In this document: positions 2,318-42,916 of the stretch, piece after piece
How the letters are laid out: each line of letters opens with the position of its first letter
Numbering within the stretch: the first letter of the stretch is position 1
Origin: a virus
DNA: 64,000 nt
IMG/VR virus record: IMGVR_UViG_3300045988_126140
Span: 1 to 64,000 of that record
Reading direction: 5' to 3' (one strand)
The notes under the pieces: generated by a model
What the model was told of the DNA's origin: nothing
Databases searched by the model: none
What the model saw: the letters and a program-made list of their open reading frames with translations, nothing else
Made by a program: the position numbers and the translations under genes

Positions 2318-3616
2318 ATGGGAGAATTATTTATTAAATTAGAAAAATTACAAAATATAAGTGGAACAAACGAAAAAAAGAAATTCATAAAAGAAAATCG
2401 AGACGACCAATTATTCTTAGATACTTTAGATTTTTTATTAAATCCATATAAAATTACGAACATATCTAAGAAAAAAATTAATAAAAAAGTGCAAATTATA
2501 GATAATCAATTAAAAGACTTAAATGAATTTTACGATTATCTAATTGACAAATCGACAGGAAAAGATAAAGATATTTCAATAATACAAGCATTTATAAGAG
2601 AACATGAAGAGTTTAAAGAGCAATTAGAAGAATTAGCTTGTAAAAGTATGAGATTAGGAGTACAAGGTAAATTAGTTAATAAGGCTTTAGGATATAATTT
2701 AATACCACAATTTAATGTGCAATTAGCATCTAAATACGAAGATAAAAATATTAAAGGAAAAGAATTTATTATATCAACAAAAATAGATGGTGTTAAAACA
2801 ATATGTATTATAAATAAAGATGGCAAGGTTAAATTTTATAGCAGACAAGGAAAAGAGTTTACTGATTTAGTAGATATAGAAAAATCAATAAATAAATTAG
2901 GATTAAAAGATTTCGTGTTCGACGGTGAAATTTATTATAATGGTGAAGTTGAAGATAGTAAAGATGGATATAAAAAAACAATGAACAATATATCAATAAA
3001 AGGTGAAAAACATAATTTAAAATATATTGTGTATGATTGCCTTACAAGTGTAGATGAATTTTATAATGGTATGTGTAAATTGCCTACAATAGACAGAAAA
3101 AGAAAATGTAAAGAATTATTAATAAACTTAAATGGGTATGTTGAATATTTAGGTGAATTATATCTTGGTAAGGATAAGACTGTAATACCTAAATTATTAG
3201 AACAGGCTGATAAGAATGGAGAAGAGGGCATCATAGTATCTATAGCGAGTGCAAAATGGGAAGGTAAGAGAACTAAAAATTGTATGAAATTAAAATCATT
3301 TAATGATTATGATGTTTTGGTTACTGATGTTTTGCTTGGTGATGGAAAATATAAAGACGTATTAGGTAAAATTGAAGTACAATTTAAATATAAAGGGAAT
3401 GTGTATACTAATTATATAGGTAGTGGTTTTACGGATTGTGAGAGAGAATATTATATAAATCATAAAGATGAATTAATAGGAAAAGTAATAACTATTAAAG
3501 CATTTGAATTAACTGAAAATCAAAAGGACGGTGTAGGTTTGAGATTTCCTACATGGCAAGGTAAAGAGTATATAAGATTGGATAAGAATGGAATAGATGA
3601 TACTAATGTTGAATAG
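2318..3616 (+). CDS. ATP-dependent DNA ligase
   Basis: Nucleotidyltransferase motifs are present in order: STKIDGVK (motif I, KxDG), FVFDGEI (III), EEGIIVS (IV), CMKLKS (V). Confidence 0.85.
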   Translation: MGELFIKLEKLQNISGTNEKKKFIKENRDDQLFLDTLDFLLNPYKITNISKKKINKKVQIIDNQLKDLNEFYDYLIDKSTGKDKDISIIQAFIREHEEFKEQLEELACKSMRLGVQGKLVNKALGYNLIPQFNVQLASKYEDKNIKGKEFIISTKIDGVKTICIINKDGKVKFYSRQGKEFTDLVDIEKSINKLGLKDFVFDGEIYYNGEVEDSKDGYKKTMNNISIKGEKHNLKYIVYDCLTSVDEFYNGMCKLPTIDRKRKCKELLINLNGYVEYLGELYLGKDKTVIPKLLEQADKNGEEGIIVSIASAKWEGKRTKNCMKLKSFNDYDVLVTDVLLGDGKYKDVLGKIEVQFKYKGNVYTNYIGSGFTDCEREYYINHKDELIGKVITIKAFELTENQKDGVGLRFPTWQGKEYIRLDKNGIDDTNVE

Positions 3617-3625
3617 GGGATATTT

Positions 3626-4411
3626 ATGGGGAGTAAAATAGATAGAACAGGCGAAGAGAATATCAATAATTTTGGAAGTAAAATGGTTATAATAGAGTAT
3701 AGAGGGGCATTAGATATAGATGTTTACTTTCCAGAGTATGACTGGGTTGCTAAAAATAAACAATATGGTGATTTCAAAAAAGGTGAAATATCATGTTCTT
3801 ATGAAAGAAGATATTATGGGATAGGATATATTGGTGAAGGGAAGTATAAAATAAGTGATGAAAATGGAAAAGAAACTAAGTATTATAAAGTTTGGCATGA
3901 CATGTTAAGAAGATGTTACAACTCGAAGTATCATGAAAAATATTCAACATATAAAGATTGTGAAGTAGTTGAAGAATGGTATAATTTACAAAACTTTGGA
4001 AATTGGTTTACAGATAATTATTATGAAATAAAAGGACAAAGAATGCATTTGGATAAAGATATATTAGGTAAACATAATAAATTATATTCACCTAATAATT
4101 GTATGTTTGTCCCTCAAAGAATTAATACATTATTTGTTAAATGTGATAAGGTTAGAGGAGAATATCCTGTAGGAGTATATTATAATAAACAAAATAAAAA
4201 ATTTAGAGCACAATGTAGTGTTTATAATTTTGAAGAAAATAAACAGAAACAAATATATTTAGGGTTATATGACACGTCAGAAAAAGCGTTTCAAATTTAT
4301 AAAAAGTTTAAAGAAAAGAATATTAAAGATATGGCTGATTATTATAAAGACCAAATACCAGAAAAACTTTATCAAGCCATGTATAATTACAAAGTAGAAA
4401 TAACAGATTAA
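3626..4411 (+). CDS. HNH/AP2-type homing-endonuclease-like protein (copy 2)
   Basis: Paralog family signature: DRTGE.NINNFGS, CxYERRYYGIGYIGEGKY, W..MLRRCY, LDKDIL..HNKLYSPNNCMFVP.RIN (degenerate His-Me/HNH core), and a C-terminal YLGLYDTSEKAF..YK AP2-like segment. The 15-mer follows the stop codon. Confidence 0.8.
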   Translation: MGSKIDRTGEENINNFGSKMVIIEYRGALDIDVYFPEYDWVAKNKQYGDFKKGEISCSYERRYYGIGYIGEGKYKISDENGKETKYYKVWHDMLRRCYNSKYHEKYSTYKDCEVVEEWYNLQNFGNWFTDNYYEIKGQRMHLDKDILGKHNKLYSPNNCMFVPQRINTLFVKCDKVRGEYPVGVYYNKQNKKFRAQCSVYNFEENKQKQIYLGLYDTSEKAFQIYKKFKEKNIKDMADYYKDQIPEKLYQAMYNYKVEITD

Positions 4412-4413
4412 TA

Positions 4414-4428
4414 AAAATAATTAATAAA
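4414..4428 (+). repeat. 15-mer (exact)
   Basis: After the stop of HNH copy 2. Followed by an SD. Confidence 0.95.
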
Positions 4429-4442
4429 ATGGAGGGTGTATT

Positions 4443-5068: not shown

Positions 5069-5100
5069 CATAGGTAATTTCAATAACAGTTTTGATAATA
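5069..5100 (+). promoter_or_regulatory. phage-specific promoter C1 (CATAGGTAATTT-N12-TGATAATA)
   Basis: Exact upstream box at 5069-5080, with TGATAATA at 5093-5100. Confidence 0.6.
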
Positions 5101-5177
5101 CTATAATAAGAAGGTGATTAAAATGTAAACTTAAAAGAAATACCTCGACAAAAGTAATTAATAAAGGAGAGATAAAT

Positions 5178-14924: not shown

Positions 14925-15512
14925 ATGTCAAAGTCTAAAATAGTTACTTGTAAATATTGTAAATCTAAAATACCTAAAGATACTGCATATGTAGAAGAGT
15001 ATTTAACTAATAGTTGCGTACTACGAAATAATTATTATTGTAGTGAAGAATGTTTAAATGAAAAACAAAATGAGATTAAGAAAAAAGAATGGTTGAAAAA
15101 AATTAAAAAAGAAAATAGAGAAAAAATTAGAGGTCTATGTAATTTAAATGAGAAAGAAAAGAATATATATTTTCAAAGCACTTATAAAAGTATTACTGAT
15201 AATTTTTCACAAGAAGATATATATGAATTTATTAATAAATATGAAAAAGATATGTTAGACATATTAAATAATATAGATTTTAAAACTGTTAATTCAAGAA
15301 TTAAATATTGTTTATCAATGTTAGAAAATCAATTACAACATTATATAGCCGAGAATCAATTAGACAAACAAGAACCTAAAGAAAAAACAGAAGAAGTTAA
15401 AGAAGTAGAACCAAATTTTGTAGATGAGGATTTCGATATAGTAGTTAATGTAAAGAAAAGAGAGCGTAGAAGCTTAGAACAAATACTGAATGGAGAAATT
15501 AATAATGAATAG
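14925..15512 (+). CDS. hypothetical protein (195 aa), N-terminal zinc-ribbon-like CKYC..CSEEC
   Basis: Start abuts the previous stop (TAAATG). Confidence 0.7.
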   Translation: MSKSKIVTCKYCKSKIPKDTAYVEEYLTNSCVLRNNYYCSEECLNEKQNEIKKKEWLKKIKKENREKIRGLCNLNEKEKNIYFQSTYKSITDNFSQEDIYEFINKYEKDMLDILNNIDFKTVNSRIKYCLSMLENQLQHYIAENQLDKQEPKEKTEEVKEVEPNFVDEDFDIVVNVKKRERRSLEQILNGEINNE

Positions 15513-16269
15513 AATAGGGGAGAAAAAATTAAACAATTTTGGGAGTGAAATTATAATTGTAGATTATAGAAAATATTCAGACATAGATGTTTATTTTCCT
15601 CAATATGACTGGGTTGCTAAAGGAGTGCAATATGGAAATTTTAAAAATGGCAAAATTAAATGCCCTTATGAAAGAAGTATTTATGGTGTAGGTTATTTAG
15701 GAGAAGGTAAATATAATCCTTATGAAAACAGAAGAGCCACTAAGGTATATGCTACTTGGAAGGATATGTTAAAAAGATGTTATGATGAAAAATATCAAGA
15801 AAAATATTCAACTTATAAAAATTGCAGTGTTACTAAAGAATGGCATAATTTTCAAAACTTTGCTGAATGGTATTATAATAACTATTATGAGATTGAAGGA
15901 GAAACAATGTGTCTTGACAAGGATATCTTATATAAACATAATAAAGTTTATAGTCCTAAGACGTGTGTATTCGTACCACAAGCTATAAATAAATTATTTG
16001 TTAAAAGAGATAATGATAGAGGTGAATCAGTTATTGGGACATATCCTTTTCAAGGGAAATATGTAGCACAATGTAGCATTATTAATCTAAAAACAGGTAA
16101 ATCAAAACACGAATATTTAGGTTATTATACTACTCAAGAGAAAGCATTTGAAGTGTATAAATATTATAAGGAAAAGAATATTGAGGAAGTTGCTGATTAT
16201 TATAAAGGTTTAGTCCCAGAAAGATTATATAATGCGTTATACAACTACGAAGTCGAAATAACAGATTAA
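15505..16269 (+). CDS. HNH/AP2-type homing-endonuclease-like protein (copy 3)
   Basis: Family signature as for 3626-4411. ATG 15505 lies 9 nt after GGAG and overlaps the upstream stop. A 14/15 copy of the 15-mer begins in the stop codon. Confidence 0.8.
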   Translation: MNRIGEKKLNNFGSEIIIVDYRKYSDIDVYFPQYDWVAKGVQYGNFKNGKIKCPYERSIYGVGYLGEGKYNPYENRRATKVYATWKDMLKRCYDEKYQEKYSTYKNCSVTKEWHNFQNFAEWYYNNYYEIEGETMCLDKDILYKHNKVYSPKTCVFVPQAINKLFVKRDNDRGESVIGTYPFQGKYVAQCSIINLKTGKSKHEYLGYYTTQEKAFEVYKYYKEKNIEEVADYYKGLVPERLYNALYNYEVEITD

Positions 16270-16301
16270 AAATAATTAATAACAAAATAGGAGTTGATAT
16301 T

Positions 16302-18539: not shown

Positions 18540-18568
18540 AATTTATATAAAAAGGGGGATTAATAATC

Positions 18569-19351
18569 ATGGGGAGTAAAATTGATAGAACAGGAGAGAT
18601 AAATTATAACACTTTTGGAAGCAAAATGATTATAGTAGAATATAGAACAAACAGAGACATGGATATATATTTCCCAGAGTATGACTGAACTGCTAAAAAT
18701 ATTCAATATGATAAATTTAAAAATGGCAATATTAAATGTCCGTATGAAAGAAGAACATTTGGAGTTGGCTATTTAGGTGAAGGAAAATATAGAACAAAAG
18801 AAAATGGGAAAACAACTAATTGTTATGAAACATGGCACAATATGTTATTAAGGTGTTATGATGAAAAATATCATGAAAAATATCCTACATATAAGAATTG
18901 TAAAGTTTGTGAAGAGTGGCATAATTATACAAATTTTGGTGATTGGTTTGTAGATAATTATTATGAAATTGAAGGTCAAAAGATGTGTTTAGACAAGGAT
19001 ATATTGTATAAAGGAAATAAAATTTATTCACCAAATACTTGTGTTTTTGTACCTAATAATATAAATGTCTTATTTGTAAAAGGCAATAAAATGAGAGGGG
19101 ATTATCCTATAGGGGTTGATTATAATAAAATTAATGGAAAATTTAGAGCAAGATGTAGTATTTATGATTTTAAAGAAAATAAAAATAAATCAAAACATTT
19201 AGGATATTATAATACACCAGAAGATGCATTCGAAACATATAAGCAATTTAAAGAACAATATATTAAAGAGGTTGCAGATTATTATAAAAATTTAATACCA
19301 AGAAAATTATCTGATGTATTATACAATTATAAGGTAGAAATAACAGATTAA
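18569..19351 (+). pseudogene. HNH/AP2-type paralog (copy 4) with an in-frame TGA replacing the conserved Trp
   Basis: MGSKIDRTGE..FPEYD*TAKN. TGA at 18686-18688 sits where all paralogs have TGG (..YDW..). The same frame continues into track ORF 18842-19351. It has its own promoter at 18512-18539. Confidence 0.8.
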
Positions 19352-19364
19352 TAATAATTAATAA

Positions 19365-19393
19365 ATAGCTCAAGTTAAATCGACTTGAGCTAT
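19365..19393 (+). terminator. stem-loop terminator candidate after HNH pseudogene copy 4
   Basis: 11-bp perfect stem ATAGCTCAAGT/ACTTGAGCTAT with a 7-nt loop, then ATTTGT (weak U-tract). Confidence 0.5.
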
Positions 19394-23342: not shown

Positions 23343-23403
23343 GAGAGTTTATATATAAAACACAATGGAACTTTTGTAGAATAATTAATAAAGGAGTGAT
23401 GTT

Positions 23404-24180
23404 ATGAGTGGTAAAATTGATAGGACAGGGGAAGTAGGTTATAATAATTTTGGTAGCGAGATGATTATTATTAGATATAAAACTAATAAAGATATTGATA
23501 TTTATTTTCCAGAGTATAATTGGATGGCTAAAAATAAACAATATGGTGATTTCAAAAAAGGTGAAATTAAATGTCCATATGACAGAAATATTTATGGAGT
23601 GGGTTATTTGGGAGAAGGGAAATATAAATGCAAAGAAAATGGCAACCTTACTAGAGTTTATCAAATATGGAATAGTATGCTTCAAAGATGTTATGATGAA
23701 AAACGCCATAAAAAACAACCGACATATATTGATTGTGAAGTAAGCAAAGATTTTCATAACTTTCAAAATTTTGGAGAATGGGACAAGGAGAATTATTATA
23801 GAGTTAAAGATGAAAAAATGTGCTTAGACAAAGACATACTTTATAAACATAATAAAATATATTCTCCAGATACCTGCATCTACGTACCACAGACCATTAA
23901 TAATTTATTTGTTAAAAATGATAAAAACAGAGGTGAATCAGTTATAGGTACAAGTCCTTTTAAAGGTAAATATATGGTAAGATGTCAAATGATTAATCCG
24001 AAAACAAGTAAATCAAAAAATGAATATTTAGGTTATTATGATACTCAAGAAAAAGCATTTAAAATATACAAGTATTACAAAGAAAAGAATATAAAAATGG
24101 TAGCTGACTATTATAAAGAACAGATACCAGACAAATTATATGATGCACTATATAATTATGAAGTAGAGATAGATGATTAA
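23404..24180 (+). CDS. HNH/AP2-type homing-endonuclease-like protein (copy 5)
   Basis: Family signature. Near-copies of the 15-mer lie on both sides (23378 and 24180). Confidence 0.8.
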   Translation: MSGKIDRTGEVGYNNFGSEMIIIRYKTNKDIDIYFPEYNWMAKNKQYGDFKKGEIKCPYDRNIYGVGYLGEGKYKCKENGNLTRVYQIWNSMLQRCYDEKRHKKQPTYIDCEVSKDFHNFQNFGEWDKENYYRVKDEKMCLDKDILYKHNKIYSPDTCIYVPQTINNLFVKNDKNRGESVIGTSPFKGKYMVRCQMINPKTSKSKNEYLGYYDTQEKAFKIYKYYKEKNIKMVADYYKEQIPDKLYDALYNYEVEIDD

Positions 24181-24204
24181 AAATAATTAATAAGGAGTGA
24201 TTTT

Positions 24205-29391: not shown

Positions 29392-29458
29392 TAGTAATAT
29401 AAGGAGGTGATAAAAATGTAAAATATTAATAAAAATAACAAATAAGGAGGAGAATAAT

Positions 29459-30115: not shown

Positions 30116-30137
30116 ATGTTATTAAAAATATATGGAG
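30097..30137 (+). repeat. 41-nt direct repeat, copy B
   Basis: TGAAAGCGAGGTAGAATAAATGTTATTAAAAATATATGGAG, exactly 303 nt downstream of copy A. Confidence 0.9.
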
Positions 30138-30166
30138 GTGATAATAATGGCAAAAGTTGTAGATAG
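30116..30166 (+). pseudogene. truncated second copy of the 29813 gene start (MLLKIYGG..), cut by the HNH cassette
   Basis: ATGTTATTAAAAATATATGGAG is repeated; the frame ends after 16 codons, inside the HNH gene start. Confidence 0.55.
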
Positions 30167-30926
30167 GACAGGAGAGAGAAATATCAATAATTTTGGAAGT
30201 GAAATAGTGATAACGGGTTGTAGAAAAGCCATAGATATAGATGTTTATTTCCCAGAGTATGATTGGATAGTTAGAAATGTGCAATATGGTAATTTCAAAA
30301 AAGGCAATGTTAAATGTCCTTATGAACCTAGTATATGTGGTATTGGATATATCGGAGAAGGTGAATATAAAGTTAGTGAAAATGGTAAAAAAACTAGAGT
30401 TTATAAAACATGGAGTGGTATGTTACAAAGATGTTATGATGAAAAATGTCAAGAAAAACATCCTACTTATAAAGATTGTAAAGTTAGTGAAGAATTTCAT
30501 AACTTCCAAGACTTTGGTAAATGGTTTGATAATAATTATTACGAAATAGAAGGAGAAAAGATGTGTTTAGATAAAGATATACTTGTTAAACACAATAAAA
30601 TATATTCTCCAGAGAATTGTATTTTTGTACCTCAAACGATAAATAACTTGTTTGTTAAAAAAGATAAAAATAGAGGTAATTCAGTTATAGGTACAAGTCT
30701 TCGTAAAAATAATAAATATATAGTATATTGTCAAATATTTAATCCAGAAACTGGTAAATCAAAAAATAAATATTTAGGTTTATATGAAACTCAAGAAAAA
30801 GCATTTGAGGTTTATAAATATTATAAAGAGAAAAACATTAAAAAAGTTGCTGACTATTTTAAAGAACAGATTCCACAAATCTTATACGATACTTTATATA
30901 ATTATGAAGTAGAAATAGATGATTAA
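30147..30926 (+). CDS. HNH/AP2-type homing-endonuclease-like protein (copy 6)
   Basis: Family signature. ATG 30147 lies after GGAGGTGA. An exact 15-mer starts at its stop. Confidence 0.8.
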   Translation: MAKVVDRTGERNINNFGSEIVITGCRKAIDIDVYFPEYDWIVRNVQYGNFKKGNVKCPYEPSICGIGYIGEGEYKVSENGKKTRVYKTWSGMLQRCYDEKCQEKHPTYKDCKVSEEFHNFQDFGKWFDNNYYEIEGEKMCLDKDILVKHNKIYSPENCIFVPQTINNLFVKKDKNRGNSVIGTSLRKNNKYIVYCQIFNPETGKSKNKYLGLYETQEKAFEVYKYYKEKNIKKVADYFKEQIPQILYDTLYNYEVEIDD

Positions 30927-30940
30927 AAATAATTAATAAA
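30926..30940 (+). repeat. 15-mer (exact)
   Basis: Starts at the last base of the stop codon of HNH copy 6. Followed by an SD. Confidence 0.95.
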
Positions 30941-30952
30941 GGAGGATTTATT

Positions 30953-31987: not shown

Positions 31988-32729
31988 ATGATTGAAAAAA
32001 ATGTAATATATAACGAAGACTGTTTTTCTTTAATGGAACAAATGGTTGAAGAAAATTTCAAAGTAGATGTTATACTGACTCAAAGTCCTCCCTAACTTAT
32101 CTAAGGAGGACTACATAAATCTATTTCAACACTTTAATAAAATATTAATTGATAATGGAACAGTGTTAATTGAAATCCCATACGATAGAAAGAAACCAAG
32201 TTATGTATTTCAAATAATAAATGAAATAGAAATAAATACGGAATTTATGTTAGGTGACATTATATATTGGAATAAAACTGACATTCTTCCAGATAATATG
32301 AGTTGTAATCAATCAACAAAGAATGTATCACAAATACATTTATTTTGTAGAAAAAGCGAATTTAAAACTTACAAGACTAACAAAAAGGTTAAAAGTTTTA
32401 GAATAACAGGGCAAAAAACATATAGTAATATATCTAATATAATTAATGCACCAGTTAGAGACAAAGGTATTAAAACATTCAATCATAAAGTATTTTCAAC
32501 TGAATTAGTAAAAGAATTGTTATATAAATATGTGAAAAAAAGAGGAATTGTCTTTGATTGTTTTTGTGGTGTAGGTAGCACATGTTTAGCAACATTGGGT
32601 GAAAATATTTATTATATAGGAAGTGAAATAGATAAGAAACAATATGAATATAGTTTAATTAGAATTTTAAAAAGAAAACAAGAAATAAAGAAGGAGTATT
32701 ATAAAAATTATAAAAGAAAGAAGGAGTGA
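31988..32729 (+). pseudogene. N6A/N4C DNA methyltransferase (PF01555-like order: motif IV then I), frame broken inside SPPY
   Basis: Frame 2 reads MIEKNVIYNEDCFSLM..DVILTQSPP then TAA (32093-32095). Frame 3 continues NLSKEDYINLF..NGTVLIEI..VFDCFCGVGSTCLA (motif I). A 2-nt gap relative to SPPYNL would explain the break. Confidence 0.7.
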
Positions 32730-32733
32730 TGTA

Positions 32734-33510
32734 ATGGGGAGTAAAATTGACAGAACTGGTGAAGTGGGTCATAACACATTTGGTAGCAAGATGATAATTG
32801 TTGATTATAAAAAATGGAACGATATAGATGTTTATTTTACAGAATATGATTGGATTGCTAAAGGAGTACAATATCAAAATTTTAAAAAAGGAAATATTAA
32901 ATGCCCTTATGAAAGAAGTGTTTATGGAGTAGGATACATTGGAGAAGGTGAATATAAGACAAGAGAAAATGGTAAAATTACTAGAATGTATATAACTTGG
33001 CACAGTATGTTAAAAAGGTGTTATGATGAAAAATATCATGAAAAATATCCTACATATATCGGTTGTGAAATATCAGAGGATTTTCATAATTTCCAAAATT
33101 TTGCTAAATGGTATCATGACAATTATTATGAAGTTGAAGGAGAAAGAATGGAGTTGGATAAAGATATACTTATTAAAGGAAATAAAATATATAGTCCAGA
33201 GACCTGTATATTTGCACCACAAACAATTAATAGTTTGTTTACTAAATGTGATAATGCTAGAGGAGATTCAGTTATAGGTGCAAGTTTTGTAAATGGCAAA
33301 TATCGAGTGAGTTGTAATTTGATTAATCCAGTAACTGGAGAATCAAAAAGAAAACATTTAGGCTATTATGACACACAAGAAAAGGCATTTGAAGCCTACA
33401 AACAATTTAAAGAAAACTATATTAAACAAATTGCTGATTACTATAAAGAACAAATACCTATTAACCTATATAACGCTTTATATGATTATGAAGTTGAAAT
33501 AACAGATTAG
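32734..33510 (+). CDS. HNH/AP2-type homing-endonuclease-like protein (copy 7)
   Basis: Family signature. An exact 15-mer lies at 33511. Confidence 0.8.
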   Translation: MGSKIDRTGEVGHNTFGSKMIIVDYKKWNDIDVYFTEYDWIAKGVQYQNFKKGNIKCPYERSVYGVGYIGEGEYKTRENGKITRMYITWHSMLKRCYDEKYHEKYPTYIGCEISEDFHNFQNFAKWYHDNYYEVEGERMELDKDILIKGNKIYSPETCIFAPQTINSLFTKCDNARGDSVIGASFVNGKYRVSCNLINPVTGESKRKHLGYYDTQEKAFEAYKQFKENYIKQIADYYKEQIPINLYNALYDYEVEITD

Positions 33511-33525
33511 AAAATAATTAATAAA
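33511..33525 (+). repeat. 15-mer (exact)
   Basis: After the stop of HNH copy 7. Followed by P6. Confidence 0.95.
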
Positions 33526-33537
33526 TAAAAAATAGTA

Positions 33538-39727: not shown

Positions 39728-39759
39728 CATAGGTAATTTTTATATCAGTTTTGTTAATA
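39728..39759 (+). promoter_or_regulatory. phage-specific promoter C10 (now reading into tnpB)
   Basis: CATAGGTAATTT at 39728-39739 and TGTTAATA at 39752-39759. Confidence 0.65.
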
Positions 39760-39778
39760 CACTAATATAAGAAAAGGA

Positions 39779-39788
39779 GGTGATAATA
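39779..39788 (+). repeat. left copy of the 10-bp direct repeat GGTGATAATA flanking the TnpB element
   Basis: Identical to 41082-41091. Confidence 0.9.
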
Positions 39789-39795
39789 TTGTAAG

Positions 39796-40926
39796 ATGAA
39801 ATCATTAAAAATAAAATTATATCCTACAAAACAACAAGAAATATTATTCTACAAACATATTAATTGTCAAAGATATATTTATAATTGGGCTTTAGGTATT
39901 AACAATGAATTATATAAAGAAAATAAAATGAAATATTCTAGTAATGAATTGTGTAAAATGCTTACTCAATATAAAAAAGATAATACTTGGTTAAATGAAG
40001 TATCTAGTGCAACGTTAAAAGAATCAATTAGAAATCTAGATAAAGCTTATACTAATTTTTATAAAGGTAGAGCCAATTTACCTAAATTTAAGAGTAAAAG
40101 AAAGTCTAAATTAAGCTTTTATAGTAGATATGATAAAATTAAATTTTACCAAAATAATACTGTTAATTTAGAAAAAATAGGTAGGGTAAAATATAAATCT
40201 AGCTATAATATAGATTTGACTCAAATAATTAAATTTAGTAATCCTCATGTATCATATAATGGTAGATGTTGGATATTAACTGTAGGTATAAGTGTAGATA
40301 GTGAAATGCATAAATTAACAAATGAAGTAATAGGAATAGATTTAGGCATAAAAGAATTAGCAATATGTAGTAATGGAATGATATTTAAAAATATAAACAA
40401 AGATTTAACTATTAAGAAATTAGAAAAACGACTTAAAAGATTGCAAAGAAAAGTAAGTAAAAAATATGAATTAAATAAAGAAGGGAGGAGTTATCAAAAA
40501 TCTAATAATATAATTAAACTTGAAAATAAAATAAATAGATTATATCGAAAATTACATAATATAAGATTAAATTATATACATCAAACAACTTCTACAATAG
40601 TGAAAACCAAACCTTGTATGATAGTTATGGAAGATTTATGTATTAAAAATATGATGAAAAATAAATCAATTGCTAAACAAGTTCAAAAGATAGGGTTATA
40701 TGAATTTATTAGACAGATGAAGTATAAATGCGAATGGAATGGTATCAGATTTGAACAAGTAGATAGATATTTCCCATCAAGCAAAATATGTAGTAATTGT
40801 TTTAATATAAAGAAAGATTTAAAATTATCTGATAGAACATATTATTGTGAAAAATGTGGTTTAACTATTGATAGAGATTTTAATGCAAGTATTAATCTTA
40901 TGAATTATGGAAAGTCATTATTATAA
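39796..40926 (+). CDS. tnpB: TnpB (IS200/IS605-family RNA-guided nuclease)
   Basis: N-terminal KIKLYPTKQQE motif. RuvC triad GIDLGIKE (D), VMEDLCIKNM (E), DRDFNASINL (D). Zinc finger CSNC..CEKC. Confidence 0.9.
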   Translation: MKSLKIKLYPTKQQEILFYKHINCQRYIYNWALGINNELYKENKMKYSSNELCKMLTQYKKDNTWLNEVSSATLKESIRNLDKAYTNFYKGRANLPKFKSKRKSKLSFYSRYDKIKFYQNNTVNLEKIGRVKYKSSYNIDLTQIIKFSNPHVSYNGRCWILTVGISVDSEMHKLTNEVIGIDLGIKELAICSNGMIFKNINKDLTIKKLEKRLKRLQRKVSKKYELNKEGRSYQKSNNIIKLENKINRLYRKLHNIRLNYIHQTTSTIVKTKPCMIVMEDLCIKNMMKNKSIAKQVQKIGLYEFIRQMKYKCEWNGIRFEQVDRYFPSSKICSNCFNIKKDLKLSDRTYYCEKCGLTIDRDFNASINLMNYGKSLL

Positions 40927-41091
40927 GAATTTCTATAACATGTAGTGTTTCGTTAAACACGAATTTACGCCTTTGGACTATTAATAACTAGAGTAGGTAT
41001 TTTTCTGAAATAGAATAGAATGAAAAAGGAATGAAGATTTATTTAAGTTTAATTTATAGATTTTTATAGATTTTCGATAACGGTGATAATA
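40927..41091 (+). ncRNA. putative omega RNA (reRNA) scaffold of TnpB
   Basis: About 165 nt of non-coding sequence lies directly 3' of tnpB. It has hairpins (GTGTTTcgttAAACAC at ~40945-40960) and a tandem TTATAGATTTT x2. The location is canonical for TnpB guide RNAs; the fold was not verified. Confidence 0.4.
41082..41091 (+). repeat. right copy of the 10-bp direct repeat GGTGATAATA
   Basis: Identical to 39779-39788. Followed by the leader ATG-TAA at 41095-41100. Confidence 0.9.
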
Positions 41092-41155
41092 AAAATGTAA
41101 AATACATTCTAAATAAAATATTAATAAAAATAACAAATTTTAAGGAGATGATGTT

Positions 41156-41396: not shown

Positions 41397-42149
41397 ATGA
41401 ATTTAAAAGTAGGAGATAAAGTTAAAATAAAAGAAGATTTGAGTGAATGTGAATTTGGATATTGTGGTTATATGGAAGAGTTTGCAGGTAAAGAGACAAC
41501 TGTAATAAGTACTTTTGGTAAAGGTGTGATAAAGTTAGATATAGATGAACAAGTCTGGGATTGGTCAGAAAATGTATTAGAATTAATAGAGGAAGGAAAA
41601 ACAATGAAAATGAAAAGAATAGATTATATATTAAATGCCAAAGATAACATGCAAGCAATATTAGATGAAACAGTGTTAGATTGTGATATATGCCCAGTTG
41701 ACAGTGGGGTTTGTAATGGTGATTGCGAATTTTATTATAAAGAATATCTAAATGAAGAAATAGAAGTTGATAAATCCAAACTGAAATTAGTTGAAGAAAA
41801 CATAGAAGTTGAAACAGTGGAATGTGATAAAGAAGTTGTTAATAACCCAGTTAATCCATTTATAGAAGAATATAAAAAGATAGTAACTGAAACAATGAAT
41901 TTATGTGAAAAGAAAAATAAAGATTATGGAAATGCAACAGATGAATCATTCAAACAATTTGGTGATGTAAGTTATCAAGTAAGATGCTTTGACAAATGGA
42001 GTAGGATAAATACATTATTGAAGAATGGAAAAGCTGAAGTTTCTGAATCATTAGAAGATAGTTTACTGGATTTAAGTAATTACTTATTCCTTTGGGTTAC
42101 AAGTAGAAGATTAAAAGAAAAAGGTGATACTATATGCCAGGAAAAATAA
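41397..42149 (+). CDS. SH3-like N-terminal module fused to a DUF1599/MazG-like all-alpha domain
   Basis: C-terminal KKNKDYGNATDESFKQFG..VRCFDKWSRI..EDSLLDLSNYLFLW matches the DUF1599 pattern. The N-terminal KVGDKVKIKEDL.. is homologous to the N-terminus of the 43434 gene. Confidence 0.55.
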   Translation: MNLKVGDKVKIKEDLSECEFGYCGYMEEFAGKETTVISTFGKGVIKLDIDEQVWDWSENVLELIEEGKTMKMKRIDYILNAKDNMQAILDETVLDCDICPVDSGVCNGDCEFYYKEYLNEEIEVDKSKLKLVEENIEVETVECDKEVVNNPVNPFIEEYKKIVTETMNLCEKKNKDYGNATDESFKQFGDVSYQVRCFDKWSRINTLLKNGKAEVSESLEDSLLDLSNYLFLWVTSRRLKEKGDTICQEK

Positions 42150-42916
42150 ACAGAAAAGGGGAAGAAAATATAAATACTTTTGGTAGTAAAATGGTTATAG
42201 TAGAATATAGAAAGGCTATGGACATGGATGTATATTTTCCCGAATACAATTGGACATCTAATCATAAACAATATGGTAATTTTAAAAAAGGCAATATCAA
42301 ATGTCCATATGATAGAAGTGTCTATGGAGTAGGTTATATTGGTGAAGGAAAATATAAGGTAAAAGAAAACGATGAGGTCACCAGAGCTTATAAGACTTGG
42401 AATCATATGATGGAAAGATGTTATGATGAAAAACTTCATAAAAAACACCCAACTTATAAGAATTGTAAAGTTAGTGAAAAATGGCATAACTTTCAAAACT
42501 TTACTGAGTGGTATGAAGATAACTATTATGAAGTTGATGATGAAACAATGTGTTTAGATAAAGATATATTAATTAAAGGTAATAAGATATATTCACCAGA
42601 AACTTGCATTTTTGTACCAAATACAATTAATGTATTATTTACCAAGAGAGATAGTAAGAGAGGAGAAACATGTATAGGTACAAGTTATCATAAAAGATAT
42701 AAAGTATATGAAGCTAATTGTCATTTAATAAACCCTAAAACTGGAAAATCTAAAAATAAATATTTAGGGAGATATAACACAGAACTAGAAGCGTTTGAAG
42801 TGTATAAATATTATAAAGAAAAGAATATTAAGGAAGTGGCAGATTACTTTAAAAAAGAAATACCAGACGAATTATATCAATCATTACATGATTACATAGT
42901 TGAAATTACAGATTAA
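42134..42916 (+). CDS. HNH/AP2-type homing-endonuclease-like protein (copy 8)
   Basis: Family signature. The start overlaps the upstream gene. This is the only copy without a 15-mer after its stop. Confidence 0.8.
   Translation: MPGKINRKGEENINTFGSKMVIVEYRKAMDMDVYFPEYNWTSNHKQYGNFKKGNIKCPYDRSVYGVGYIGEGKYKVKENDEVTRAYKTWNHMMERCYDEKLHKKHPTYKNCKVSEKWHNFQNFTEWYEDNYYEVDDETMCLDKDILIKGNKIYSPETCIFVPNTINVLFTKRDSKRGETCIGTSYHKRYKVYEANCHLINPKTGKSKNKYLGRYNTELEAFEVYKYYKEKNIKEVADYFKKEIPDELYQSLHDYIVEITD

Follow-up and report, generated by a model that had tools for sequence, protein, structure and literature searches.

The locus described here raises the question of how the gene for an RNA-guided nuclease comes to lie within the leader of a phage gene and what it does there. 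In the first 64,000 nucleotides of the IMG/VR virus record IMGVR_UViG_3300045988_126140 (the whole stretch analysed, hereafter the window) a tnpB gene encoding 376 amino acids (aa) interrupts a short leader between its Shine-Dalgarno (SD) sequence and its ATG-TAA start-stop mini-ORF (open reading frame, ORF). We consider that this gene, part of a non-autonomous IS607 element of the RAGATH-18 class, is probably driven by phage signals that it has captured and acts in RNA-guided homing. The element is reduced to tnpB, a 3′ guide-RNA scaffold and a right end, and is placed at the GG of the SD sequence AGGA[GG]TGAT; its family, its exact junctions, the absence of both tnpA and a left end, the untouched target in related phages and the conservation of protein and RNA are all established here.

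All parts of the locus are on the plus strand. A copy of a phage promoter family (ATAGGTAATTTT..TGTTAATA..TAATATAAG; 39729..39771), which is phage sequence outside the element and precedes the alleles of this site that lack the element (naive), carry it (occupied) or retain a remnant of it (scar), is followed by AGGAG (39775..39779), which is both the SD core of the leader and the predicted transposon-adjacent motif (TAM) and which in naive alleles stands directly 5′ of the 20-mer that matches the guide. The SD sequence (..AAAAGGAGGTGATAATA) ends at 39788, 7 nt (TTGTAAG) before the tnpB ATG at 39796, as a check of the window confirmed. The stop codon of tnpB (39796-40926) is followed by 155 nt of non-coding DNA, after which the 10-mer GGTGATAATA, already present at 39779-88, appears again at 41082-91 and the leader (AAAATGTAAAATAC..) is resumed, including the mini-ORF at 41095..41100, which is now cut off from its SD. 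An earlier note on this DNA had described the promoter, SD, spacer, ATG, gap, repeat and resumed leader correctly in every respect. The repeat by itself is nevertheless weak evidence for an insertion, because the 10-mer is a common SD-plus-spacer word of this phage, occurring five times in the window against an expectation of 0.35.

Stronger evidence comes from related phages. TnpB proteins 85-94% identical to that of the window are encoded on metagenomic contigs of 130-155 kb, which are relatives of the window phage, and the elements occupy at least six sites in this clade: site A, that of the window, by the genes for NrdG and a 79-aa protein; site B, near sigma-factor genes; site C, by YorF and ERF; site D, upstream of a C5 methylase; site E, on an IMG/VR contig; and site F, by ThyX and a 120-aa gene, sites B-F lying outside the window. 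Removal of the element from site A yields the 25-mer AGGAGGTGATAATAAAAATGTAAAA (the TAM and the 20 nt past the scaffold), to which four IMG/VR contigs of 133-140 kb have an exact match, with the same promoter upstream of it and the same leader and 79-aa gene downstream; one of these contigs, L057, is 97.8% identical to the window across the 2.8 kb from nrdD to nrdG. The empty site reconstructed in the earlier note, which had also proposed a survey of related phages for it, is therefore real. Since the empty 25-mer is found at the same locus, the insertion was precise, AGGA[GG]TGAT.. having become AGGA[GG]-element-AAC[GG]TGAT... A megablast search of the locus against GenBank phages gave no match, and a scan of JGI metagenomes with the right-end pattern returned one real match (to site A) and three chance matches.

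Comparison of naive with occupied alleles places the GG core dinucleotide at 39779..39780 on the left and at 41082..41083 on the right, with no target-site duplication. The left and right 10-mers are not such a duplication, because in the junction comparison across sites A-E only GG is always common to, and constant at, both junctions; most of the left 10-mer belongs to the element (other copies read GGTGATATTA), and the right one is target or leader sequence. The right junction falls exactly at ..AACGG at every site, and the sequence beyond it differs from site to site. As a separate observation, position 39786 of the window (position 8 of the left 10-mer) is A in all site-A copies and T at sites B-E; this A equals the target base and makes the repeat perfect, and could be either a gene-conversion patch or a point mutation.

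The family assignment follows from the RNA, the protein and the junctions. The only Rfam match in the window is RAGATH-18 (RF03064; 40970-41031, plus strand), with 50.9 bits against a gathering score of 44.9, directly 3′ of tnpB and on the same strand. This motif is the scaffold of the guide RNA (right-end RNA, reRNA) of IS607 TnpB and co-occurs with IS607 TnpB only (Ren et al. 2024, Cell Res, PMC11061315); in our comparison an Rfam match was obtained for 12 relatives, Staphylococcus phage PALS_1 and Clostridium phage c-st among them, and in all 12 it is this motif, above the cut-off. The scaffold structure is kept in 16 aligned relatives, with compensatory changes at 14 of 20 pairs, and the same alignment supports a 5′ flanking hairpin (GTGTTT..AAACAC; 40940..40969, the start being approximate); in ISFba1 the reRNA begins 13 nt past the stop codon (PMC11061315). 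The 3′ flank of the reRNA and the right end (41032..41082, ending CGATAACG) are conserved as far as ..AACGG in every relative, whether from a phage or a bacterium, and include two TTATAGATTTT repeats (41054-41064 and 41064-41074). In this class the whole reRNA is encoded 3′ of the ORF and is continued by a flank-templated guide, for which the optimal length is 20 nt in ISFba1 (PMC11061315).

The tnpB product has the Pfam domains HTH_OrfB_IS605, OrfB_IS605 and Cas12f1-like_TNB, and its best match in the PDB is ISFba1 TnpB (8IAZ; phmmer E 5e-70, full length). The RuvC residues align with D194, E290 and D371 of the latter (IDLG at aa 181, MEDL at 278 and DRDF at 359), and both CxxC pairs of the zinc ribbon (CSNC and CEKC) are present, in agreement with the earlier description of an intact catalytic triad and zinc finger. 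The protein has the architecture of a RAGATH-18-class IS607 TnpB (helix-turn-helix, RuvC D-E-D, zinc ribbon). Its ORF is intact in every copy seen, and copies at different sites are 87-93% identical, with a ratio of non-synonymous to synonymous divergence (dN/dS) of 0.16-0.27. The closest bacterial relatives (from Clostridium, Proteocatella and others; 47-54% identity) are full IS607 elements, which encode a 208-aa TnpA with MerR HTH and Resolvase domains and whose right end (..TTTATAAAGTTTTATAAGGTTTTGGCAACGG) is homologous to that of the window (..TTTATAGATTTTTATAGATTTTCGATAACGG). Full IS607 elements with TnpA are also present on viral contigs (L083-L085, one of 138 kb), with the same TTTATAGAT repeats in both right and left ends.

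These data bear directly on the possibility of an IS200/IS605-type insertion. This type, which the earlier note took as its frame and which the Pfam name OrfB_IS605 suggests, would call for a Y1 TnpA, for hairpin ends in single-stranded DNA and for an omega RNA that overlaps the ORF. Neither hairpin ends, nor an RNA overlapping the 3′ end of tnpB, nor a Y1 TnpA in relatives was found; the relatives carry a serine TnpA, the element has double-stranded ends, the reRNA is wholly outside the ORF, both junctions carry GG, the core dinucleotide of IS607 serine recombination (bioRxiv 10.1101/2023.11.20.567912; PMC6188088), and RAGATH-18 is exclusive to IS607. We therefore regard an IS605 identity as refuted for practical purposes; the element is an IS607-family TnpB of the RAGATH-18 reRNA class, and labels of the type 'IS605 OrfB' should be read with caution, as they hide IS607-class elements. 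Both the family and its biochemistry are already published, and the window holds a degenerate new member.

The degeneration concerns the transposase and the left end. No serine-recombinase TnpA is encoded upstream of tnpB, a tblastn search with five IS607 TnpA proteins found none in the 64-kb window (best E 1.3), and the phage promoter runs up to the GG junction, with no left end and no subterminal TnpA-binding repeats, much as the earlier note had concluded; about 20% of published RAGATH-18-class loci are likewise without TnpA (PMC11061315). The left end of the full elements L083-L085 is about 110 nt long, its TTTATAGAT repeats matching the right-end repeats of the window element, and the left flanks at sites D and C are homologous to it (z 9.6 and 6.4, respectively). 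The copies at these two sites lack tnpA and retain about 85 nt of left end, whereas at sites A, B and F phage promoter sequence reaches the SD, as naive alleles prove for A and F.

The window copy has lost its left end, such that tnpB now lies 15 nt behind the captured AGGAGG. These 15 nt (TGATAATATTGTAAG; 39781..39795), at the position of which other copies read TGATATTATTGTAAG, form an internal SD spacer and no true left end. The left end was most likely lost after an ordinary insertion, through a deletion between the SD of the target and the internal SD of the element; no intermediate of this loss was found. Because the site-D and site-C left flanks are homologous to the left end of full IS607 elements, two readings were dropped, one taking GGTGATATTATTGTAAG for a left end common to every copy and the other AGGAAGG for a variant of the TAM; GGTGATATTATTGTAAG is instead the internal SD and spacer of the element. 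With regard to left ends elsewhere, that at site D (L018:2918-2983) has TTTATAGAT and ATCTATAAA motifs like those of L085, and L075-L077 (TnpB 75% identical, contigs of about 199 kb) lack tnpA and keep a full left end, their right end reading ..AGTAACG followed by AAGTG, so that there is no GG at the right junction.

Why should such an element lie behind an SD? Among 19 independent right junctions, comprising the phage sites, bacterial relatives and one Staphylococcus phage, 14 have a start codon opening at least 40 codons 5-12 nt past the right-end GG, the baseline for a start codon after any GG in the same loci being 13%. Landing beside an SD in sense orientation is explained by the TAM of the class, because AGGAG (18 of 22 strains) and GAGGG (4 of 22; PMC11061315) are also SD cores. 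SD targeting thus appears to be a class property, not peculiar to the window copy, and of the earlier observation that tnpB sits precisely between SD and ATG, the position stands and the supposed peculiarity does not. The meaning of these junctions is that elements of this class land between the ribosome-binding site and the start codon of a gene, in its sense orientation. This link between TAM and SD core was not found stated in Ren et al. 2024 or the other literature searched.

The guide itself is predicted to be templated by the first 20 non-conserved nt past the scaffold (GTGATAATAAAAATGTAAAA; 41083..41102), that is, by the start of the interrupted leader, and these are the same 20 nt that stand 3′ of AGGAG in the naive alleles, where TAM and target are matched in full (20/20; L056-L059). 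The earlier note had proposed a guide templated by the leader just past the right end, and its first guess, GGTGATAATAAAAATG, is right to within one base. Within the window the only perfect match to the guide is its own template, preceded by GATAACG and so without a TAM, and no self-target was found, the best of the 169 AGGAG or GAGGG sites having 6/20 mismatches. The promoter family to which the captured promoter belongs has 12 plus-strand copies in the window (among them those at 5070, 10630, 12180, 19472, 25085, 29361, 34741, 36226, 36800, 39729 and 44201), with the consensus tcATAGGTAATTTT-N13-TGTTAATA-N3-TAATATAAG, which is not sigma-70-like. In a scan for sigma-70 promoters, the number of sites was no higher than in shuffled sequence. 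An SD and a start-stop mini-ORF, either ATG-TAA or ATG-TAG, come after five of the copies, and intact promoter-leaders with a mini-ORF like that of the interrupted one lie at 5070, 10630, 12180 and 29361. Related phages also encode their own sigma factors.

Given this family, TnpB could conceivably have been domesticated as a regulator of, or weapon against, the paralogous promoter-leaders of its own phage, since the guide starts with SD-proximal bases common to many leaders and the leaders at 5115, 10674, 12226 and 29405 resemble the target. However, the leader at 29403 in TAM register has 9/20 mismatches to the guide, the other three lack AGGAG, and none of the TAM sites in the window comes closer than the 6/20 just mentioned, and ISFba1 TnpB is reported to be sensitive to single mismatches. 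The RuvC triad is intact, unlike that of TldR-type repressors, which combine an inactive RuvC with a guide matching a resident promoter, and no in-register target was found in the window; moreover the element is polymorphic and occupies many unrelated sites in relatives. We consider such domestication very improbable, and this suggestion of the earlier note finds no support. Its premise that the guide matches the leader family is true, trivially, for the interrupted leader and fails for the paralogues. Because of the mismatches, the missing TAMs and the mismatch sensitivity, the guide is aimed at the naive allele of one site and not at the leader family.

The alleles of site A provide a view of what has happened to the element in the population. 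Eight contigs are occupied, with identical junctions; four are naive, with TAM and exact 20-mer; five (L048, L050, L051, L053 and L060) carry a scar; and one (L049) is missing the leader through a larger deletion. Several of the naive, occupied and scar contigs have identical NrdG. The scar alleles, which read ..GGTGATAATATTGTAAGATGAAATCATT/CTAAATAAAAC.. (also written ..TTGTAAGATGAAATCATT/CTAAATAAAAC..), still have the internal spacer and 11 nt from the start of tnpB and have lost the rest of tnpB, the reRNA and the target; they correspond to a 1302-bp deletion between CATT repeats (39803..39806 and 41105-41108). With 9/20 mismatches to the guide, they are predicted to resist cutting. Both scar flanks resemble occupied alleles, on which ground an origin by aborted homing into a naive genome was rejected; the L048-type 'empty' allele was likewise rejected as ancestral, since these 11 nt of tnpB are part of it and the naive type is that of the other leaders in the family. 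The right breakpoint, CATT at target nt 23-26, is directly past the target-strand cut (nt 22) reported for ISFba1 TnpB and may be a coincidence or a repair footprint. A C present in the scar (AAAACATT) is shared with naive L057 alone.

Presence and absence of the element are thus polymorphic at a single site, and the empty allele matches the nuclease target, as is looked for in a homing gene. Copies at one site are nearly identical: element identity is never below 98.9% at site A or below 99.85% at sites B-D, and synonymous divergence (dS) among within-site tnpB copies is about 0.005, while the flanks differ by several percent (400-nt flank identity 89-100% at sites B-D and 94.5-100% among the occupied alleles of site A). 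Of the 96 pairs compared, 88 show a higher identity for the element than for either flank, a contrast that fits a recent spread of the element over diverged backbones.

Some observations at the other sites concern the same junctions. The left junction at site F (L065-L068, about 30 nt upstream of tnpB) is anomalous, in that AGGAG and 14-16 nt of target are kept (GGGGGATTTATGAGA); GGGGGATTTATGAGA is imperfectly duplicated on the right, the internal SD occurs only after the left copy, the spacer TGTAAG is changed to GAG, and the length of poly-G differs among contigs. Both this junction (TAM plus 14-16 nt) and the scar breakpoint (target nt 23-26) coincide with the ISFba1 cuts at nt 16 and 22, respectively. 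At the right junction of site B, three contigs (L001, L003 and L073) with neighbouring DNA 96-99% identical have three alleles, GTGGTACA, GTGACAAA and GTGATATA, which differ almost only in guide nt 4-8 and could reflect rapid change of the TAM-proximal part of guide and target. The empty site-D alleles L011-L014 read GAGGG/GATAAC.., one base or one indel off the site-D guide, and may be escape variants.

How, then, would the element be maintained? The phage promoter and the captured SD would drive tnpB, an expression from captured phage signals that the sequence of the locus supports, as the earlier note had suggested. Because the DNA from tnpB to the next gene has no predicted terminator, the transcript would read through the scaffold into the leader and so supply both scaffold and guide, and TnpB would bind this RNA and trim it, leaving GTGATAATAAAAATGTAAAA as a guide of some 20 nt. 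If a naive relative infected the same cell, the complex would recognise AGGAG with the 20-mer and cut, and recombination with the occupied genome would then copy the element into the cut naive genome. The carrier genome would escape cutting, its TAM and target being held apart by the element, and so would the scar allele, from which the target is deleted. Such behaviour, like that of a free-standing homing endonuclease gene, would amount to the 'transposon non-restorative homing' proposed, in theory only, in a 2026 review (PMC13565253). New sites would most likely be seeded by a serine TnpA in trans acting on relatives that contain a left end, which would afterwards be lost between the SD of the target and the internal SD of the element. 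Action against TnpB-less sister phages, as envisaged by the earlier note, is the best-supported role, given that naive, occupied and scar alleles coexist and that within-site copies are mostly more alike than their flanks.

Several points weigh against this picture. Expression, RNA processing, cleavage and homing are inferred from the sequence, and TAM, guide length and cut sites are taken over from a homologue (E 5e-70, full length) by analogy. The scar is most simply a deletion in a carrier; it shows loss of the element and not homing. The contrast between element and flanks could partly reflect ordinary mosaic recombination of phages. Finally, the left junctions at other sites do not all have a canonical TAM, and the arrival of copies without a left end at several SDs, each with an exact right junction, is unexplained.

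If the element were an inert relic, an old IS607 insertion passively inherited after losing tnpA and the left end, then those losses, together with scars that show the element being deleted, would be expected, and the allelic states and mosaic identities could arise by drift and general recombination in phages that are highly mosaic and carry many HNH genes. A relic, however, would hardly keep an intact ORF in every copy seen with dN/dS of about 0.2, nor its reRNA structure by compensatory changes; and it would leave without explanation both the near-identity of within-site copies on backbones several percent apart and the 20/20 match of the guide, beside a perfect TAM, to naive alleles still in circulation. 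We therefore regard passive inheritance as improbable. An ordinary transposon mobilised in trans by the serine TnpA of the host or of a co-resident IS607, with TnpB acting only restoratively after excision, is a more serious possibility, albeit one to which we would give only a minor share of our confidence. It accommodates the exact right junctions at AACGG at every site, the left end of about 85 nt at sites C and D, the presence, on viral contigs of the same IMG/VR source, of full IS607 elements whose end repeats match, and the report that a second end not bound by TnpA can be captured by a TnpA filament formed on the first (PMC6188088). Yet the window contains no tnpA, and the window copy has no left end, its promoter abutting the junction as naive alleles prove, whereas CboIStron needs about 40 bp of left end for efficient excision (bioRxiv 10.1101/2023.11.20.567912); furthermore, no precise excision product can be distinguished from the ancestral naive allele, and the losses actually seen are microhomology deletions.

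A more radical version of homing deserves mention here, in which the tnpB-reRNA cassette, without left end or transposase, would itself be an autonomous homing gene hopping from one ribosome-binding site to another. Three properties would enable this: the identity of TAM and SD core, the SD-like words (AGGAGGTGAT..) on both sides, and the rewriting of the guide by the right flank. New SD sites would be seeded through TnpB breaks and short-homology repair, with no transposase, and each new insertion would capture a promoter and a ribosome-binding site; the site-F junction, with its TAM and 14-16 nt of target, and the scar breakpoint at nt 23-26 could, by analogy with the ISFba1 cuts, be footprints of such repair. 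We think autonomy of this kind doubtful, slightly more so than inert inheritance. Homing by a non-autonomous element, with a transposase supplied in trans for the seeding of new sites, is the reading that we prefer. Whatever the route of dispersal, one phage clade here offers a natural allelic series of naive, occupied and scar alleles and of copies with and without a left end, and hence a concrete system for testing whether a transposase-less TnpB spreads by RNA-guided homing between co-infecting phages.

Other mobile genes are numerous in the window and in the clade. The window has seven or eight paralogous genes of about 780 bp (42134-42916; approximately 3613-4434, 15480-16292, 18556-19374, 23391-24203, 30134-30949 and 32721-33533; and a partial copy at 2-688), which share 61-82% DNA identity with the reference copy of each family. 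One paralogue that was tested matches PHROG HNH endonuclease families (phrog_953, E 2.5e-63), and the set is an unusually dense one of free-standing, homing-endonuclease-like genes. Related phages have further, different TnpB genes (365 aa and 403 aa; L011:1567-2664, L009:7938-9131, L019:1-218 and L073:4107-4131), so that there are several TnpB paralogues per genome. Two more homing elements vary in presence within this clade: an intein of the C5 methylase, with Hint and LAGLIDADG domains, which some phages have and others lack (L018, L021 and L022 compared with L019, L020 and L023), and an HNH_3/NUMOD1 gene that splits nrdD in some phages (L049 and L054).

The element can finally be placed among known systems. 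With ISFba1 and the other RAGATH-18-class systems (PMC11061315; PDB 8IAZ) it shares protein architecture and catalytic residues, a scaffold wholly 3′ of the ORF that ends ..AACGG and is continued by a flank-templated guide, and an AGGAG TAM beside the target; it differs in a diverged protein (phmmer E 5e-70, full length), in the lack of TnpA and left end, in its residence in a gut phage, the genome of which should measure 130-150 kb to judge by related contigs, and in the position of tnpB 15 nt behind a captured SD and promoter. Phage-resident IS607 TnpBs with RAGATH-18 (50-52% identity) are found in Staphylococcus Twort-like phages and Clostridium phage c-st, but these copies retain upstream remnants of a left end or tnpA, of which the window copy has none; in PALS_1, for example, TnpA is cut down to a MerR-like fragment of about 85 aa, of which only some 47 residues still match IS607 TnpA, and the right-end GG is 8 nt before a start codon. 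The TnpAS-TnpB system of CboIStron/IS607 (Zedaveinyte et al. 2023/2024) has the same GG core dinucleotide and a TAM that likewise overlaps the TnpA target motif, and its TnpB cuts the element-free joint and promotes homologous repair, an activity to which that of the window element may be likened. However, the window element has neither a group I intron nor TnpAS, its TAM is AGGAG and not TGGG, and without excision the restorative role is inapplicable. A parallel in behaviour may be drawn with phage homing genes, such as the free-standing seg and mob homing endonuclease genes of T4, in which, as at site A, presence and absence are polymorphic at one intergenic site in related phages. In both, the nuclease target is the empty allele, the carrier is immune since its site is split, and degenerate or resistant alleles occur in the population; unlike the phage homing genes, for the window element homing in co-infection is a prediction from sequence, and its target would be recognised by RNA, so that each new insertion would retarget itself.

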